Source: Fistulifera solaris
Lineage: Eukaryota
Assembly: GCA_030295235.1 (NCBI GenBank)
Contig: AP026126.1
Span: 1,364,001 to 1,428,000 of the forward strand
Length of the DNA stretch: 64,000 bases
Direction of reading: 5' to 3'
The notes under the pieces: generated by a model
The model's database searches: none
The model's input: only the letters and a program-made list of their open reading frames with translations
Told to the model about the DNA's origin: nothing
Position numbers and translations under genes: made by a program
Shown: one piece after another, positions 1,135 through 42,025 of the stretch
Layout: every line of letters starts with the position of its first letter
Numbering within the stretch: position 1 is the stretch's first letter

Positions 1135-2412
1135 ATGAAAGCATATATGACATTTCAGCATGGCAGCCAGCCGCTGGGGATATTGTACATGGAATTGGAA
1201 CCGAAAGTCGTTCCCAAAACAGTGCGAAATTTTGAGACATTTCTTCGAAAGGGTTACAAAGGAACGAATGTGCACCGACTGATCAAAGGCTTTATGCTTC
1301 AAGCGGGTGATATCACAGCAGGCGATGGAACAGGAGGATATTCTATTTACGGGAAAACATTTGCGGATGAAAATTTTATTCTTCGACATGATCGCCCCGG
1401 GCGTTTGAGTATGGCGAATGCGGGGCCGAATACAAATGGAAGTCAGTTTTTTATTACGTTCAAACCGACTCCTCATTTAGACGGGAAACATGTTGTGTTC
1501 GGCAGCGTAGACTTGCAGAGAAGTGGGGCGTTGTTGAAAACTCTGGAGCAAATTAAAACGCTATCAAACGACAAACCAAAACAAGAGTTGACAATTGTCG
1601 ATTGTGGTATCCTAGAGGAGGCCTCCAACAGCGCAAAAACGACAGCGGTCGCTGAAGCTGCTGATGTTGATGCAGATGAAATCGACTTGGAAGAAGAAGA
1701 GGATGTTGAGACTGGAAACGATGTTGTAGAGGAAGTTGTTGAACCGGAGGAGGAGGAGGAGGAGGAGGACTCGAAACCGTTAAGTAAATCAGAAGCGTTG
1801 AAGAGGCGATTAAGGAAGCTCAAACAAAAGGTCAACCAAGCGAGACAACTTAATAAACAGGCAGTGAAAGACGAAGGAGAACGGTCGACTGACGAGGGCA
1901 GTGCGTCTGCTCGGAAGAAATTAGCGGCTTCGAATAAAGAGGGCAAGAATTTCATCTGGGCACAACAGAATGCTAAGGCTTTGTCCATTGCCAACGAATC
2001 GGGGGTAGATGCGAAGCATCTGACAGAACAAGCTGTAGATTCAGTTTATAAGGCACGACTAGCCGCTGAACGAGCGGAAACGCAACCTCACAAGTATCTA
2101 CGAGATTTGAAATCTATTCCTCGAAATTTGCCTCAATCCTCAGAGACTGGTATTTTAACCTTCAACCCACTACAGAATGAAGTGAATCCCGACAAAGAAC
2201 GAGAGGGGGCGCGGCGGTTGGCTCTGGAAATGCACAAAAGAGTGGAGAAGAATACGAAACGATTACTTTCTGTCAAGCGCAAAGGTGGCGATGGCGGTGA
2301 CGTTTCTTACATCAACAAGCGGAATAAAATTTTCAATGAGAAAATCAGTCGTGATTATGATAAGCACACGGCGGAAATTCGAGAAAGTTTAGAACGGGGC
2401 AGCGCTTTATAA
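1135..2412 (+). CDS. Cyclophilin-type PPIase fused to a C-terminal SYF2 splicing-factor domain
   Basis: N-terminus has cyclophilin motifs ([40 protein letters not shown]), followed by an acidic linker. C-terminus [34 protein letters not shown] matches the SYF2 end motif. Confidence 0.9.
1747..1769 (+). repeat. (GAG)n microsatellite encoding poly-Glu
   Basis: gaggaggaggaggaggaggagga inside the cyclophilin linker. Confidence 0.8.
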
Positions 2413-35421: not shown

Positions 35422-36981
35422 ATGACTACCGCGTCAATTTCATGTGCCATAGACCGTAATGATGCGAGCATCCCGGCGGATACTTATTGTTCACGAAAGG
35501 ATGAACAAAGACTTCAACAAACGGCGGAGGACCGTGACGCAACAGAATATCGCAATCCGCTCATGAATTTCTTTGGAAGCAATAACACCCAGCGTCTCGA
35601 TCACGACGAAATAGAGTTGGATGATATTCGTGTTCTTTCTTTCGTCAGCCGAGAGCGCGAACCCGAATTCGACGATTGCCCCGAATACAGCTATGATTCT
35701 GACAATGAAAATACCTCGCAGGACGATTATCACGTGACACATGGTTCCGACGAGGCAGACGAAGTCAAATCTTTGCAAACCTACATTCTCGGAAAGAAAT
35801 ATCATCCCGTTAACGACTACACGCTTCGGAGAGAGGACGAAATATCACTATTTTGGTTCACCTATCGCTGCGATTTCCCTGAAATGAAGCCATATCGAAT
35901 TCAAAGCGATGCCGGCTGGGGTTGTATGCTGCGATCAGCTCAGATGATGGTCTGTCAAGTCCTACGACTACACTACAAATCACGTACATGGAGACCTCCC
36001 AAGTCGTTAGCAGCACGGCGACAAGACCCGTTCGTCAGGAGATTGATGACTTGGTTTGCCGATTTTCCATCGACCACAGAATGCTTTTATTCCTTCCAAA
36101 ACATGGTAGCGGCTGGACTGAACTATGATAAATTACCCGGCGAATGGTACGGACCTGGCACGGTGAGCTTTGTCATTCGCGATTTAGTAGCCATGCACGA
36201 CCAACAGCGGCAAGAGTTCGGCAAGCCTCTATTTCGAGTGCACGTTGCAAGCCAAGGGACTGTGTACCGTGACGAAATTCGCCGACTAATGATACAAGGC
36301 GCAGTAACCGCTGTTCTTACAAGTGGACAAAGTGCATCGAGGCCCCGTGCTGCGCATCCGTTGGACCACGCTGCTTGGGAAGAAGATCGTCTCGAAAAAG
36401 TACCCGATTGGGACACTGCTTTGCTGCTGTTAATCCCTTTGCGCTTGGGTCTGAAAACGTTCAATTTGGACTACGTCCGACCACTTGCTCATACCTTTTC
36501 GTTGCCCCAGTCTGTCGGCGTTTTAGGGGGTCGCCCACGGGGAGCGCGGTATTTTTACGGCGCATTTTCCGATGGATCGAAAATCTTTGGTCTCGATCCG
36601 CATACTGTTCAAGCTGCGCCGCAGCGAGCTTCTGTTAGCATCAACGGAGAACTGTCGTCAGTGATAGATTTATCGGACAACTATCTTCGGTCCATACATA
36701 CAGCCGACCCCGAATCTATTTCCCTCGAGAAGATGGATCCGAGCATCACCCTAGGTTTTTATTGTGAAAACGAACGTGATCTACAATTTGTTTTTGAAAG
36801 CGTACAACAGTGGAAGAGGACACACCCTGGGTCACCGGAGTTGTTTACGACGGCAAATTATTCGCCGGACTACGCAGCAAATGTTTCGTCAACCATGAAG
36901 AAAATCATGCTATCCAGTTCCTCGCTCATTGACACGGAAGATGATCAAATAAGCGATGAAGATGACTATGTCATGCTGTGA
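35422..36981 (+). CDS. ATG4: Cysteine protease ATG4
   Basis: FWFTYR, SDAGWGCMLRSAQMM, PGEWYGP, LIPLRLG, PQSVGVLGGRP, LDPHTVQ and MDPSITLGFY. Confidence 0.95.
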   Translation: MTTASISCAIDRNDASIPADTYCSRKDEQRLQQTAEDRDATEYRNPLMNFFGSNNTQRLDHDEIELDDIRVLSFVSREREPEFDDCPEYSYDSDNENTSQDDYHVTHGSDEADEVKSLQTYILGKKYHPVNDYTLRREDEISLFWFTYRCDFPEMKPYRIQSDAGWGCMLRSAQMMVCQVLRLHYKSRTWRPPKSLAARRQDPFVRRLMTWFADFPSTTECFYSFQNMVAAGLNYDKLPGEWYGPGTVSFVIRDLVAMHDQQRQEFGKPLFRVHVASQGTVYRDEIRRLMIQGAVTAVLTSGQSASRPRAAHPLDHAAWEEDRLEKVPDWDTALLLLIPLRLGLKTFNLDYVRPLAHTFSLPQSVGVLGGRPRGARYFYGAFSDGSKIFGLDPHTVQAAPQRASVSINGELSSVIDLSDNYLRSIHTADPESISLEKMDPSITLGFYCENERDLQFVFESVQQWKRTHPGSPELFTTANYSPDYAANVSSTMKKIMLSSSSLIDTEDDQISDEDDYVML

Positions 36982-37037
36982 GCAGGGAATAGGGAGACGT
37001 GGATGTCATACAACGTTATTTCTTTACACCAAGGGGA

Positions 37038-37136
37038 CGTCTTGAAAAAGTACCCGATTGGGACACTGCTTTGCTGCTATTAATCCCTTTCTGATTGGGT
37101 CTGAACAACGTTCAATTTGGACTACGTTCGAGCACT
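37038..37136 (+). repeat. Diverged copy (about 100 bp) of an internal ATG4 segment (source 36388-36485)
   Basis: Shares gaaaaagtacccgattgggacactgctttgctgct...ttaatcccttt...ttgggtctgaa...aacgttcaatttggactacgt with the source, with a few substitutions and a 1-nt insertion. Confidence 0.9.
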
Positions 37137-37326
37137 ATGTGGTGCAAAAGCTGCGAGAGCGATGCGAGACGCATAGATTGAATACCGCACCGGCAAAGAA
37201 AGTGCATCCACAATCGCACTGGTACCCAATTGTTTGCTGAAGCATGTGATCCGTTTGGAAGCACCACAACAATAAAAAAATGCACCATGGCGCGCAAAAC
37301 TTTTATTGCTAGTAACAAATGAAAAC

Positions 37327-37331
37327 AAAAA
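37327..37331 (-). terminator. Pol III oligo-T terminator
   Basis: TTTTT on the minus strand, 7 nt after the end of the tRNA 5' half and right after the AGCGTT trailer; a further TTTT follows. Confidence 0.7.
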
Positions 37332-37338
37332 GAACGCT

Positions 37339-37419
37339 CATAAGACCGGCACTCTAACCACTGAGTTACTAGGGCATTAGCAATACCCTAGACGGGGTTT
37401 GAACCCGTGGCCTCCGGCT
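37339..37419 (-). tRNA. tRNA-Ile(TAT): Circularly permuted tRNA-Ile(UAU): 3' half 37419-37384, 8-nt spacer, 5' half 37375-37339
   Basis: The joined halves give GCCCTAG TA ACTC AGTGGTTA GAGT G CCGGT CT TAT G|A GCCGG AGGCC ACGGG TTCAAAC CCCGT CTAGGGT A. All four stems pair, invariant residues are present and the discriminator is A. Confidence 0.92.
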
Positions 37420-38968
37420 CACTAGCGTTAGGATTAATTATCTTATCCCCAACTCCCGTGTGGATATTAGCAAAACGCGACATTTTTATTGTATATAAAA
37501 TGTACAAATCTATAAAAAGCACATAAAACAAATTATCTGGTGATGTAGTTCATCCGTAACTTTTCTTTTCAACCGTTCCACCTCAAAATTCTCACCCTGG
37601 TCACTATCAGCGCCATGGTCGTATAGTCAAAACAGGTTTGCGAAATCGTCGGAGGCACTATTTGCACGTCAAAGTTTATGCGGTTTCAATACAAGTGCTT
37701 CTTTCGATGCTCTACTGCTCTTTCCCTTGCTTGCTCTTCCCCCAAATCTGGAGTAGAAAATATGCTGGTCTTGGAATTGAACCAGTGGGTCTGCTTGGTG
37801 TATATTCACAACCCAATGCCACCCAGGAAGCGTGTTTACTGGCGTCCTTGTGGGTCCTGAAAACACCAAGTACTGTCGTTGCCCTTCTGTTTGATGTTTC
37901 TTTTGGTTGTTGGCTTGATGGATAACCCCTAGCGGCAGGAGATTTCCACATCTATTGTTTGTACAGTCTATGTCAGCATGGTACATGTTTGGCCTCTCTT
38001 CAATTTTTTCCAGTATGACATTCAACGGCGAATCAAGAGAAACTTACAGTCCTCCTTATAACACCCGCAACCGTAAAGTGATCTGAAATGAAATTTTCCC
38101 ATCCACTGTGCTAACCTTCATTTGGATGGGGACGTGTCTTCGGGTTAGGGAGTTATAGGCATACGTCTATTCGTCATTGACATGTAGAAAGAGGCTTTCC
38201 CGCCAATTATCAATGCCTTTGCGGAAGCGATTCATGTCGCGAAACAGTGTGTGTGTATCATACATTTTCTTCTTTTCAATATCAGAAGAAATTCAGAAGA
38301 AGATTCTGATGAGTCTCGATGGCCTTTCAACAGGCAAATGATAGTAAAACTTACCTTTTGTTTTGCATCAGATTGTGTTTCTTGTTGTTATCTGACCGAG
38401 AAATCCAAGCTGGCTTTTCAGTTCGACCGTCGTAAATTGTCAATAAAGACCGACAAAGCACATCTCAACATGACAATTTTGTGGCTCTCCAAGACTGATA
38501 TCCCTCAACCTATTTTCAATGCTCTGAGAGGGTTCCTTTTAATTCAATTGCAATATTCCAACTGTCCTCATTGACAGAGAATGGTTGAAGAGACATGTTT
38601 TGCGAGTTGCGAAATGTGTGTCGGTGCGCCAAGGAGAACTGTCCCAATTTCCGGCCTTTGTCATACATGTTAGCCCGGCTTCAACTAAAACAATACAAAA
38701 GAATCACTAGAGTCGCGATCAAACTATCATTCTTCGACGAAAAATACTGTCAGAACTAGCATCGTTGTCGAAATGAGTGTACTGTTAAGCTGTATGTACA
38801 AAATAAGAGTTAAGGATATCTCCGCGAACAGCAGCTGTAATAAAGCGACCATGGTGACCAGTAACCACACATCATGAATATGAAAAAGTGTGGCCGTTTC
38901 TGTCGCCTCCGCATTTTTACAAACAATCTTCATTCGAATTACTTCATCCTGGCTTACCGATAATACAA

Positions 38969-39347
38969 ATGGTAAAACGATTATCGATCGCAGGGCGAAA
39001 CCCGTGACCGAATTGGAATCGCGTTCTAAACTTTATTCTTTTGCAGATCTTCCTTTCTTTCTTCCAAAACGCTGGTTGGCAAAGAGGTGGCTGTGGAGTT
39101 AAAAAATGATGTGGTAATGATGGGGACACTTCATAGCGTAGACCAGTATTTGAATGTAAAATTGTTAAACGTTCAAGTCGTTCAGCCAGAAAAGTATCCG
39201 CAACTTACGGCTTTACAGAGTTGCTTTATTCGAGGAAGCGTCGTGCGGTATATCCAAATTCCACCGGAACACGTTGACACCGAATTGTTGCAAGACGCAG
39301 CGCGCAAAGAAAATGCACCCGCTTCTGCTAAGGCAGTGAAATCTTGA
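38969..39347 (+). CDS. LSM2: U6 snRNA-associated Sm-like protein LSm2
   Basis: ATG-only first exon, intron 38972-39046, then IFLSFF..TLVGKEVAVELKND...GTLHSVDQYLNVKL...CFIRGSVVRY...VDTELLQDAARKE. 1-nt slip near 39066. Confidence 0.92.
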
Positions 39348-39433: not shown

Positions 39434-42025
39434 TTATTGAGAAGATTTGAGAACTTCTACAGTGAGGACCCAAAATTTAGTACCAACGTGCAGCCCGTAT
39501 GGATTCGCATCAGTCCCTATTTCTCCAGCAACAAGCTCTTCTTGGTAAATAATGCGGCCAAGGACAAAGTCGGGTGACCCCTTGATGCAATCGGTCGACA
39601 GGTAACGATGCGGACAATTCGTATGAAACGCAAGATACATCCGCTTGCCCCCTGTACCGCGACCAGTAGGCATGAAGAGACCAACATCCCCTATGCGGAA
39701 GCTGCTATGACTTATTTTGTCATTGAGCTGATTCGATGCCTCTAATTGATGCGTCGCTTTTTCCAAAAGAACCTTGGTCTTGTCTAGTTCTTTTCGAAGG
39801 GCCACAACTTCCTCTCCGGCAACATCAGCCGCACCATCCTTAGCGCGTGCTTCTTCAATGTAGGCTCGAGGTGGCTTGGCGCCTAAGCGTTCCAAAGTTT
39901 GTCGCAGGATGCAGTTCTCGTAAGCGAGAGTCTTTGCTTCGGCCTCAATAGCAGTGTTTGAAGCAGGATCGAGAATGATCTCATCTCCACTTTGTTCATC
40001 CGCACTGACAATCAAGTGTTCCGGCTGTTGAGCTGGTTCTTGCCCCGCTACCGCGGCACTTGTCATCATATTCGCACTTTGCTGCGGGTGATGACTCTCG
40101 GTGGTAAGTGTTGATGCACTGCCCCCTCCTTGCTCGGCAACTGTGGCGCTTTGCTGCATCAAAGCATCTGCGGCTGAATCCGCAGCGGACGACATCCCAA
40201 CGTTTGGTATTGTGTCCAACTCCACTAGCGCCGGAAGCTGCGGTGTAAACAAGGGAGGAGGTGTAGCCAAAGTAGGTACAAAAATGTCATAAAACGCCGG
40301 CATCAAATGTCGCCCTGCCCCCCTCAAAAACTTTTCTCTCGCTCGGACCTCGTCATCTCTCATTGCCGCCACGCGATCCATCATCGCTGTTGCCGACGCC
40401 ATGACCGCCTGACCATAGGCTCGGCGACGGCGGAGCTCCGACAGGAAGACTCGATACGATTCAGGAAGTTCAGAAACATGTTCTAAGTGAATCATATTTT
40501 CGGCTTGCTGCACAAGCGCTTCCCGAAGAACACCAACGCTAGACAGAACTTTCTGTATCGATGACTGAGCCACACTGACTTCCCGCAGCCTGGCTTTCAT
40601 ACGCCTCATCATACGATTCTTTGCATCAGCCACACTCGCCATCAATTCTTTAAGTTGTTCATCATCTTTCCGCATTTGCGAAACCAAATCCTTTGTCGAA
40701 TTCGACATCTCGCGAAGAGGAGTAAAAACATTCTGTATCTCGTCATCGCTCTGAGAGTTCATAGCATGCGTTATCCTTTGAACAGCATCCCGATGAGCAT
40801 TTCTTAGCATATCCAGTCGCTGCGCTTGCGCTTCATTTATATTTTGGACTGCCTCTTCAACTTTTGACCAAAGGTTGTTGATTTCGTTTTCGGCGTCGTG
40901 ATCTCTTTGTGCAATATCTTCACGGGAAGACGGAGAAGCAAGCTGATTGAATGTGATTTCAAGCTCTCCAAAAGGGAAAGGAGCCTCTGATGAGAATGTA
41001 GGCATTGCGTAGCCCATGCTCGCTCACGCTCTACAGGAACCGTGTCAAGGAGGTTATCCATATTGCGTCCAGCAGCTCGTGCTATCGACACTAATGATGG
41101 ATGCAAAGGGATTGTAGCCAAATTCGAAAGAATAGAATCAAAGCGCTGCAAAAGAGCTCCGTGTGCGGACGTTTTTGCTTGAAAGTTTGCCGTAAATTCT
41201 GCACGTGTTCGGGCCGCCCCATGATAATGGTCTGAAAGATTCGAGACTGCGGCACGCAGAGATCTAGCCATGACCGCCTGCTCCTGCACGCATGATCGAC
41301 AAGCTGCCATGCGAAGATCTGCCCCGTCGGCTAAAACACGCCCTTGGGACATGTGAAGCATAAATTGTCGTTCAAAAGCAAACAAGGGAAGATGCAAAGG
41401 CGGGGCCCCGCTGGGATCGAGCGACAAAGGACTCGGTCCAGGTGCTTCCGTTGGTAGCGTAAGAGTAGTGGGTTCCAGATGACATATAGGAGGGTCGGGT
41501 GCATTTTCAGACAAATCAAGCTTCGAGAATAGAAAAAGGCGTTTCGCACCCGAACGCTCAGATCTTGTCAAAAGAGTTCTTGGTTTAGTGACATCTTCTT
41601 GGATGGGGTCATCTTCCATATCCCCCAGACGCAAAGCATTTAATATTTCCTCTGATTGTAAAGTTGTATTTTTGGGGACTTTGTACGGTGGTCCTAAAAG
41701 AAGAATTTGATTTTGTGGAGGGACAGCAGCGGCCAAATGACTGCGAAGATTTGTCACCCTGCGAAGCAAGAGGCCCATCAGAGAATACGATACAGAACGA
41801 TGGAGGAAGTACAGGACCGCACTTCTATACGAAGCAGTTTCGGAATCAAAAGAGAAACATGAACAGAATAGCATTTCCATCATCTATCACTACCAAGAGT
41901 CTTCCGCAGTCACAGAAATTGCTGACTTACGTGAGTTCTGAAAGCTGCAGCTTTATCTTATAGGTCATCCCTGTACTCGCAGCGAGCACGCGTATCGTCA
42001 CCGACTGCGAATGATTGCTTGTCAT
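39434..42025 (-). CDS. ATG11: Autophagy-related protein 11 (RB1CC1/FIP200-like)
   Basis: N-terminal ubiquitin-like region (IRVLAASTG, VPPQNQILL, RLFLF), coiled coil with ELRRRRAY, and C-terminal Atg11 domain (ISHSSFRIGDVGLFMP, YLAFHTNCPHRYL, FVLGRII, NPYGL). Intron about 41763-41930; slip near 40975. Confidence 0.85.

Follow-up and report, generated by a model that had tools for sequence, protein, structure and literature searches.

The window, the whole 64-kb stretch of DNA analysed here, is nuclear DNA of a eukaryote, rich in genes and with a GC content of 46%. Its genes include ATG4, an ATG11/ATG17-like gene, genes for an MCM helicase and for Nup93, a cyclophilin-SYF2 fusion and an LSM exon at 39087-39347. 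Among the 120 matches listed for the MCM protein, all 17 of the 17 entries that carry an organism name are from diatoms. The top named matches in this list are from the pennates Pseudo-nitzschia, Cylindrotheca, Nitzschia and Seminavis (52-55% identity), and two further homologues, also among the matches listed, reach 87-92% identity. Gene content and MCM homologues together bear out the initial impression, gained from the sequence before any comparison, of a diatom-like nuclear genome. In the eight Pfam-supported ORFs of the window, AUA accounts for 37 of the 216 isoleucine codons (17%), or 8.0 per 1000 codons; the codon is in use and a reader for it is therefore needed.

The gap of about 580 bp that follows ATG4 is richer in AT, and the tRNA gene described here stands alone in it. 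Read on the minus strand from 37429 to 37327, the sequence presents in succession a leader, the 3' half of a tRNA, an 8-nt spacer, the 5' half of the same tRNA, a trailer and a run of five T residues (Table 1). This order of elements had been proposed in a sequence-only reading of the window, and re-reading of the minus strand shows its coordinates to be right for every element. No run of four or more T residues occurs between leader and trailer. The 3' CCA is not encoded: A73 is directly followed by TTG, as in genes of the eukaryal type.

Table 1. Features of the permuted tRNA locus, listed from upstream to downstream on the minus strand
Feature	Position	Strand	Remarks
TATA-like element TTTATATAC	37491..37499	-	Some 72-80 nt ahead of the 3' half; candidate for an upstream Pol III promoter
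Second copy of the spacer 8-mer TTGCTAAT	37466..37473	-	46 nt upstream of A38; membership in the gene uncertain
AT-rich stretch ATAAGATAATTAAT	37433..37446	-	14-27 nt upstream of the 3' half; second candidate TATA-like element
Leader strand AACGCT of the 6-bp outer helix (h)	37424..37429	-	Perfect complement to the trailer (37338-37333); paired in predicted folds
Leader AGTG	37420..37423	-	A(-4) and G(-3) able to pair with U33 and C32; U(-2) and G(-1) form a 3-nt bulge with A38
tRNA 3' half, positions 38-73 (36 nt)	37384..37419	-	3' strand of the anticodon stem, variable loop, T arm, 3' strand of the acceptor stem, discriminator A73
Spacer TTGCTAAT (8 nt)	37376..37383	-	Between A73 and G1; without CCA and without a T run
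tRNA 5' half, positions 1-37 (37 nt)	37339..37375	-	5' strand of the acceptor stem, D arm, 5' strand of the anticodon stem, loop C32 U33 U34 A35 U36 G37
Anticodon TAT	37342-37340	-	In the 5' half
Trailer strand AGCGTT of the outer helix	37333..37338	-	From sequence and predicted folds
TTTTT-G-TTTT, Pol III-type terminator	37322..37331 (T5 37331-37327; TTTT 37325-37322)	-	Starts 8 nt after G37; a single C between trailer and T5

In this arrangement the B box precedes the A box, so that transcription would have to start upstream of the gene. The layout is of a known type, with TATA-like or AT-rich sequence upstream, T5 and T4 runs downstream and no internal terminator. The permuted genes of Cyanidioschyzon merolae have the same architecture, with a TATA-like element within tens of base pairs upstream and a T-stretch downstream (Soma 2007 via PMC3978253). 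It is by likeness to these genes (PMC3978253) that TTTATATAC is put forward as a candidate RNA polymerase III promoter.

Several features of the neighbourhood deserve mention in their own right. Two autophagy genes lie within 5 kb of the tRNA: the ATG4 cysteine protease gene (35422-36981, plus strand) and the gene for the ATG11/ATG17-like scaffold (39434-41883, minus strand). The latter is divided over two overlapping ORFs, probably by an intron or a frame change. The region 37566-38400 has no ORF longer than 118 aa and no Pfam match, and it is covered by contigs of two related sequencing runs (X3 and X4) that are 90-95% alike. In one of the X3 contigs 76 nt (38278-38355) are skipped, a segment whose ends on the plus strand are AT..AC. 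This region may correspond to an intron-rich or non-coding gene. Further away, a single ORF (1135-2412, plus strand) encodes both a cyclophilin-type isomerase domain and a SYF2 splicing-factor domain.

Reassembled tRNA and its detection

When the two halves are swapped by script, ARAGORN calls a tRNA-Ile(tat), that is, with anticodon UAU, of 73 nt. This is the check that the sequence-only reading had suggested for its central claim, a circularly permuted gene interrupted at position 37/38, and the claim is upheld both by the coordinates and by the call on the swapped halves. The complete cloverleaf that had been drawn is likewise recovered, since all 21 of the 21 stem pairs form in the reordered tRNA: 19 are Watson-Crick pairs and the remaining two are G1:U72 and U31:G39. 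The acceptor stem has 7 bp (including G1:U72), the D stem 4 bp, the anticodon stem 5 bp (including U31:G39) and the T stem 5 bp. The conserved positions U8, A14, G15:C48, G18G19, U33, G53:C61, T54-T55-C56, A58 and A73 are all present. In mature order, the minimum free energy (MFE) is -27.0 kcal/mol against -26.4 kcal/mol for the canonical cloverleaf, and the MFE structure is essentially the cloverleaf.

Two residues, which had escaped the initial description, set this tRNA apart. Position 10 is an A, which forms an A10:U25 pair; the determinant for m2G10 methylation is a G10-C25 pair (PMC9976931). Position 37 is a G. The modification expected of tRNA-Ile(UAU) is t6A37 (PMC9602550); it needs A37 and is therefore impossible here. 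For most eukaryal-type enzymes, t6A37 is not a determinant of recognition by IleRS (PMC9976931). If the tRNA works, it would do so with G37, probably as m1G, in place of the near-universal t6A37.

The gene is invisible to standard scanners, as had been anticipated: ARAGORN, with introns allowed or not, finds no ordinary tRNA gene in the 64-kb window, and Rfam at gathering thresholds returns no match over the same stretch. The tRNA model RF00005 retrieves a weak T-arm fragment in the 3' half (13.2 bits, model positions 43-63). An ordinary colinear tRNA gene was thus rejected, there being no contiguous match by ARAGORN or Rfam. The best permissive Rfam match over 37330-37429 is YrlA (RF02553; 25.8 bits, E 0.0013, gathering score 69), and its alignment follows T arm, acceptor and D arm in the same permuted order as the locus. 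YrlA is a bacterial Y RNA-like RNA with a tRNA-like module composed of a T arm, an acceptor-like stem and a D arm, as found here. The locus differs from it in its eukaryotic host and in the full anticodon arm that appears once the halves are joined. Membership in this family was rejected on the score, which lies far below the gathering score, and on the gaps in the alignment at model positions 13-21 and 90-101.

The significance of the permuted arrangement can be judged from a half-swap scan, in which each perfect 7-bp acceptor-type hairpin on both strands is taken, its flanks are swapped and the product is submitted to ARAGORN. A search of this kind had also been suggested in the sequence-only reading and was carried out within the 64-kb window. 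This locus alone was accepted among 11,446 candidates, its five accepted rows being five registers of one hairpin. The same scan of 24 dinucleotide-preserving shuffles of the window accepted none of 274,217 candidates, and a chance origin was rejected on this comparison. Moreover, the T-arm-like hairpin of the locus is the only one on either strand of the window. The 121-nt region as a whole folds at -41.1 kcal/mol (z -3.78), a value equalled by none of 200 shuffles.

Relatives were sought in other collections. A metagenome scan with an exact 24-mer (positions 42-65), a pattern that detects near-identical relatives only, returned four loci, all of them unrelated colinear tRNAs (three Ala(TGC) and one Asp(GTC)). 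In prokaryote and viral collections, neither the architecture pattern nor the core of the 5' half gave any match. As a side observation, one GC-rich metagenome contig (L002, 1444 nt) carries 12 tRNA genes in 1.2 kb; two of these are tRNA-Asp(GTC), one of which shares the 24-mer probe.

Order of the halves and flanking sequence

The public run X1, the records of which are contigs, carries 0.90 of the sampled words from 36400-38400. One of its contigs (record 6, 253 nt, 37342-37593) matches the window with no other letters and one gap, and spans 34 nt of the 5' half, the spacer and the entire 3' half. Among the records listed, no X1 joint touches 37327-37429; the sole joint leads from 36982 to 37163. 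The order of halves first read from the window is therefore reproduced, with zero mismatches, by a contig from a different pipeline, although X1 is perhaps the window's own source sample. Because X1 may be the sample from which the window was assembled, its contig is not independent of the reads; it excludes assembler error, though not a fault within the reads. The runs X3 and X4 have no contig that covers about 36939 to 37565 and are neutral on the order.

Other X1 records around the gene diverge from the window. Over its 194 nt, the record on 37163-37356 has 22 other letters, and it leaves out 180 nt. Loose ends are found, among the records listed, at 37038, 37437, 37478 and 37512, and depth approximately doubles across 37338-37404. 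On visual inspection, the loose end behind 37437 is similar to the upstream sequence of the window itself, apart from an indel. There looks to be a diverged version of the region in X1, either a heterozygous allele or a duplicate of recent date, with the tRNA core in common.

The same order of halves could be contained in a tandem pair of colinear genes, whose outer halves would lie in the flanks. No outer halves are recognisable in the 100-nt flanks, where 1794, 1851, 464 and 1888 of 2000 shuffles scored as well as the sequence itself; a tandem pair of normal genes was rejected on this ground. The flank does contain a second copy of the spacer 8-mer. On both strands of the 64-kb window TTGCTAAT occurs only twice, on the same strand and 90 nt apart. 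The alignment around the second copy is not significant (464 of 2000 shuffles are as good). This copy is possibly the relic of an ancestral tandem duplication or repeat unit.

Splice motif, proposed maturation and rival explanations

The leader AACGCT and the trailer AGCGTT form a perfect outer helix of 6 bp at the junction. The G(-3):C32 pair lies at the canonical place of the anticodon-intron pair, and A(-4) can pair with U33. The 5' cut, after G37, would fall where a 4-nt bulge (U34-G37) ends, and the 3' cut would lie in a 3-nt bulge composed of U(-2), G(-1) and A38. Where the standard motif has a central helix of 4 bp, the helix here has only 2, a departure that the initial description did not include. 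A hand-built hBH-type fold of the precursor, scored without the three extra spacer pairs, reaches -30.2 kcal/mol. The MFE of the 97-nt precursor is lower (-40.6 kcal/mol) and corresponds to a near-continuous rod, in which the leader GUGAG is paired with CUUAU, A(-4) is opposite G37 and U31 bulges out; the energy model used for this fold ignores tertiary tRNA folding.

In the proposed route, RNA polymerase III would start at the upstream AT-rich or TATA-like element and produce one RNA with leader, 3' half, 8-nt spacer, 5' half and trailer, stopping at the T5/T4 run. The body of this RNA would adopt a tRNA-like fold with the spacer closing the acceptor stem, and the 6-bp pairing of leader and trailer would mimic a canonical intron stem. 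The tRNA splicing endonuclease would then cut after G37 and before A38, and tRNA ligase would join the ends to give a circle of 81 nt. Removal of the spacer by RNase P and tRNase Z, followed by CCA addition, would complete the process. In the predicted circle, the spacer adds 3 bp and the acceptor hairpin is extended to 10 bp with a 3-nt loop, a stem that RNase P and tRNase Z would need to open. Circular intermediates, on a route that includes opening by these two enzymes, have been shown experimentally in C. merolae (PMC3978253); the route is proposed for the present locus, as is the expression of an intact gene that the sequence-only reading had inferred.

The splicing machinery that this requires is present in diatoms, since Phaeodactylum (P. 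tricornutum) has tRNA genes with canonical introns and Trl1 homologues occur in diatoms (PMC4090602). As far as the accessible text goes, the intron-containing tRNAs given for P. tricornutum do not include Ile; they are R, E, Q, Me, P, S, T, W and Y (PMC3531208). Intron context may matter for this particular isoacceptor. In yeast tRNA-Ile(UAU), pseudouridines 34 and 36 require the intron (PMC9602550). The leader-trailer helix would provide the anticodon with an intron-like context, and it may serve intron-dependent pseudouridylation of U34 and U36.

Judged by its sequence, the locus is very probably a genuine circularly permuted tRNA gene. We consider it probable that it represents a type II (37/38) nuclear tRNA-Ile(UAU) gene which is functional and decodes AUA in a diatom of the pennate type. 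It could instead be a dead relic, derived from a tandem pair of intron-containing tRNA-Ile(UAU) genes by loss of the outer halves and neither transcribed nor matured, with AUA read by another gene or by a tRNA-Ile(IAU). The unusual G37 and A10, the central helix of only 2 bp, the rod-like MFE fold of the precursor and the upstream repeat of TTGCTAAT, with its hint of a duplication history, would all suit such a relic, which we nevertheless regard as unlikely: none of the 21 stem pairs or universal positions has been lost, whereas the outer halves would have decayed beyond detection (at least 1794 of 2000 shuffles are as good). Moreover, neutral decay would not leave just the inner halves together with a perfect, in-register 6-bp leader-trailer helix and a terminator. 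An assembly artefact, in which a colinear or tandem gene had been mis-joined, is far less credible still. Nothing positive speaks for it, except that the sole run holding the locus (X1) is perhaps the source of the assembly; the contig that crosses the junction comes from a different pipeline and shows no mismatch, and a mis-join would not create exact complementarity between leader and trailer as well as a terminator.

It is somewhat less likely than the relic that the locus is expressed as something other than an ordinary isoleucine decoder, be it a tRNA of another identity or anticodon produced through a non-canonical junction (AGU or UGU, for Thr) or a tRNA-like regulatory RNA. In principle the junction is ambiguous, a point that the initial description had passed over. 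If the 5' side contributed fewer than four nucleotides and the leader the remainder, a Thr anticodon would result (AGT with 0-2 nt, TGT with 3 nt); under the canonical 37/38 rule the anticodon is UAU. A G at position 37 is atypical of tRNAs for ANN codons, and the top Rfam match is the tRNA-like YrlA, but this match falls at 25.8 bits against 69 with two deleted stretches of the model. The alternative cuts would hit paired nucleotides (C32:G, U33:A), and a Thr tRNA formed by a shifted junction was rejected for this reason. Furthermore, the ruler mechanism of the eukaryal splicing enzyme measures to 37/38 (PMC3978253). Finally, A73 and the anticodon fit Ile, and t6A37, missing here, is no determinant for most eukaryal-type IleRS (PMC9976931).

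Relation to known permuted and colinear tRNA genes

A review of 2014 counts 34 permuted tRNA genes, from six algae and one archaeon (PMC3978253). The closest parallels to the present locus are the type II genes of the prasinophytes Ostreococcus and Micromonas and of the Bigelowiella and Amorphochlora nucleomorphs, in which the 3' half also comes first and the junction also lies at 37/38, there with a relaxed hBH-type motif to which the leader-trailer fold of this locus may correspond (Maruyama 2010 via PMC3978253; PMC4494063). The spacer of such green-type genes measures 5-64 bp, compared with 8 here, and in both cases CCA is not encoded and the upstream sequence is AT-rich (PMC3978253). The host is different: the known type II genes belong to a green alga or a green-derived nucleomorph, whereas the present one belongs to a stramenopile nucleus and is predicted from its sequence. 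Ile(UAU) is absent from the 34 genes as they appear in the accessible text of the 2014 review (PMC3978253), and G37 is another difference. In C. merolae, junctions occur at four positions with varied BHB forms (PMC3978253), in contrast to the single 37/38 junction of this locus. The tRNA-Ile(UAU) gene of that alga is colinear with three introns (PMC9602550), while the one described here is permuted.

The locus also has much in common with the colinear, intron-containing tRNA-Ile(UAU) genes of eukaryotes such as yeast, with which it shares the anticodon and the break at 37/38 (PMC9602550). In both, the anticodon region lies beside a helix formed with non-tRNA sequence, the context for pseudouridines 34 and 36 (PMC9602550). 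It differs from the colinear genes in that the halves are swapped, the 'intron' is divided between leader and trailer, and G37 replaces A37/t6A37.

The taxonomic distribution of permuted tRNA genes is somewhat wider than the sequence-only reading had it. The list given there was incomplete, Auxenochlorella (PMC12633428) and Amorphochlora, the second nucleomorph (PMC4494063), both of which have permuted tRNA genes, having been left out. According to the accessible text of a 2026 review, such genes are known only in the red and green lineages and in green-derived nucleomorphs (PMC13578239). PlantRNA 2.0 includes two annotated heterokontophytes; permuted genes are mentioned, in its accessible text, for rhodophytes only. 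In the accessible parts of four publications in which diatoms figure (PMC13578239, PMC4090602, PMC12633428 and PMC8450103), they do so in contexts other than permuted tRNA. A permuted tRNA gene in diatoms or other stramenopiles is not reported in the searchable literature, made up of the main texts of openly accessible papers, and the initial statement that no such report was known agrees with this. The work of Maruyama in 2010 is said to have screened diatom genomes and to have found no permuted genes in them.

Permuted tRNA genes as such are already known. What is new here is the lineage, a stramenopile host nucleus, the isoacceptor Ile(UAU) and the unusual G37. Tentatively, and with the balance of probability somewhat against so broad a reading, it may be proposed that the sole dedicated AUA decoder of this diatom, and perhaps of many, is a permuted gene of independent stramenopile origin, the product of which matures through a circle, keeps an intron context and works with G37.

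A diatom case would extend a rare trait to a stramenopile host nucleus. It would bear on the question of whether permuted genes arise repeatedly wherever canonical introns occur together with upstream promoters. It would also be a warning that the tRNA sets of diatoms, when compiled with standard scanners, may miss a real gene. Moreover, it would offer a natural test of whether the intron context and the t6A37 of tRNA-Ile(UAU) are dispensable.
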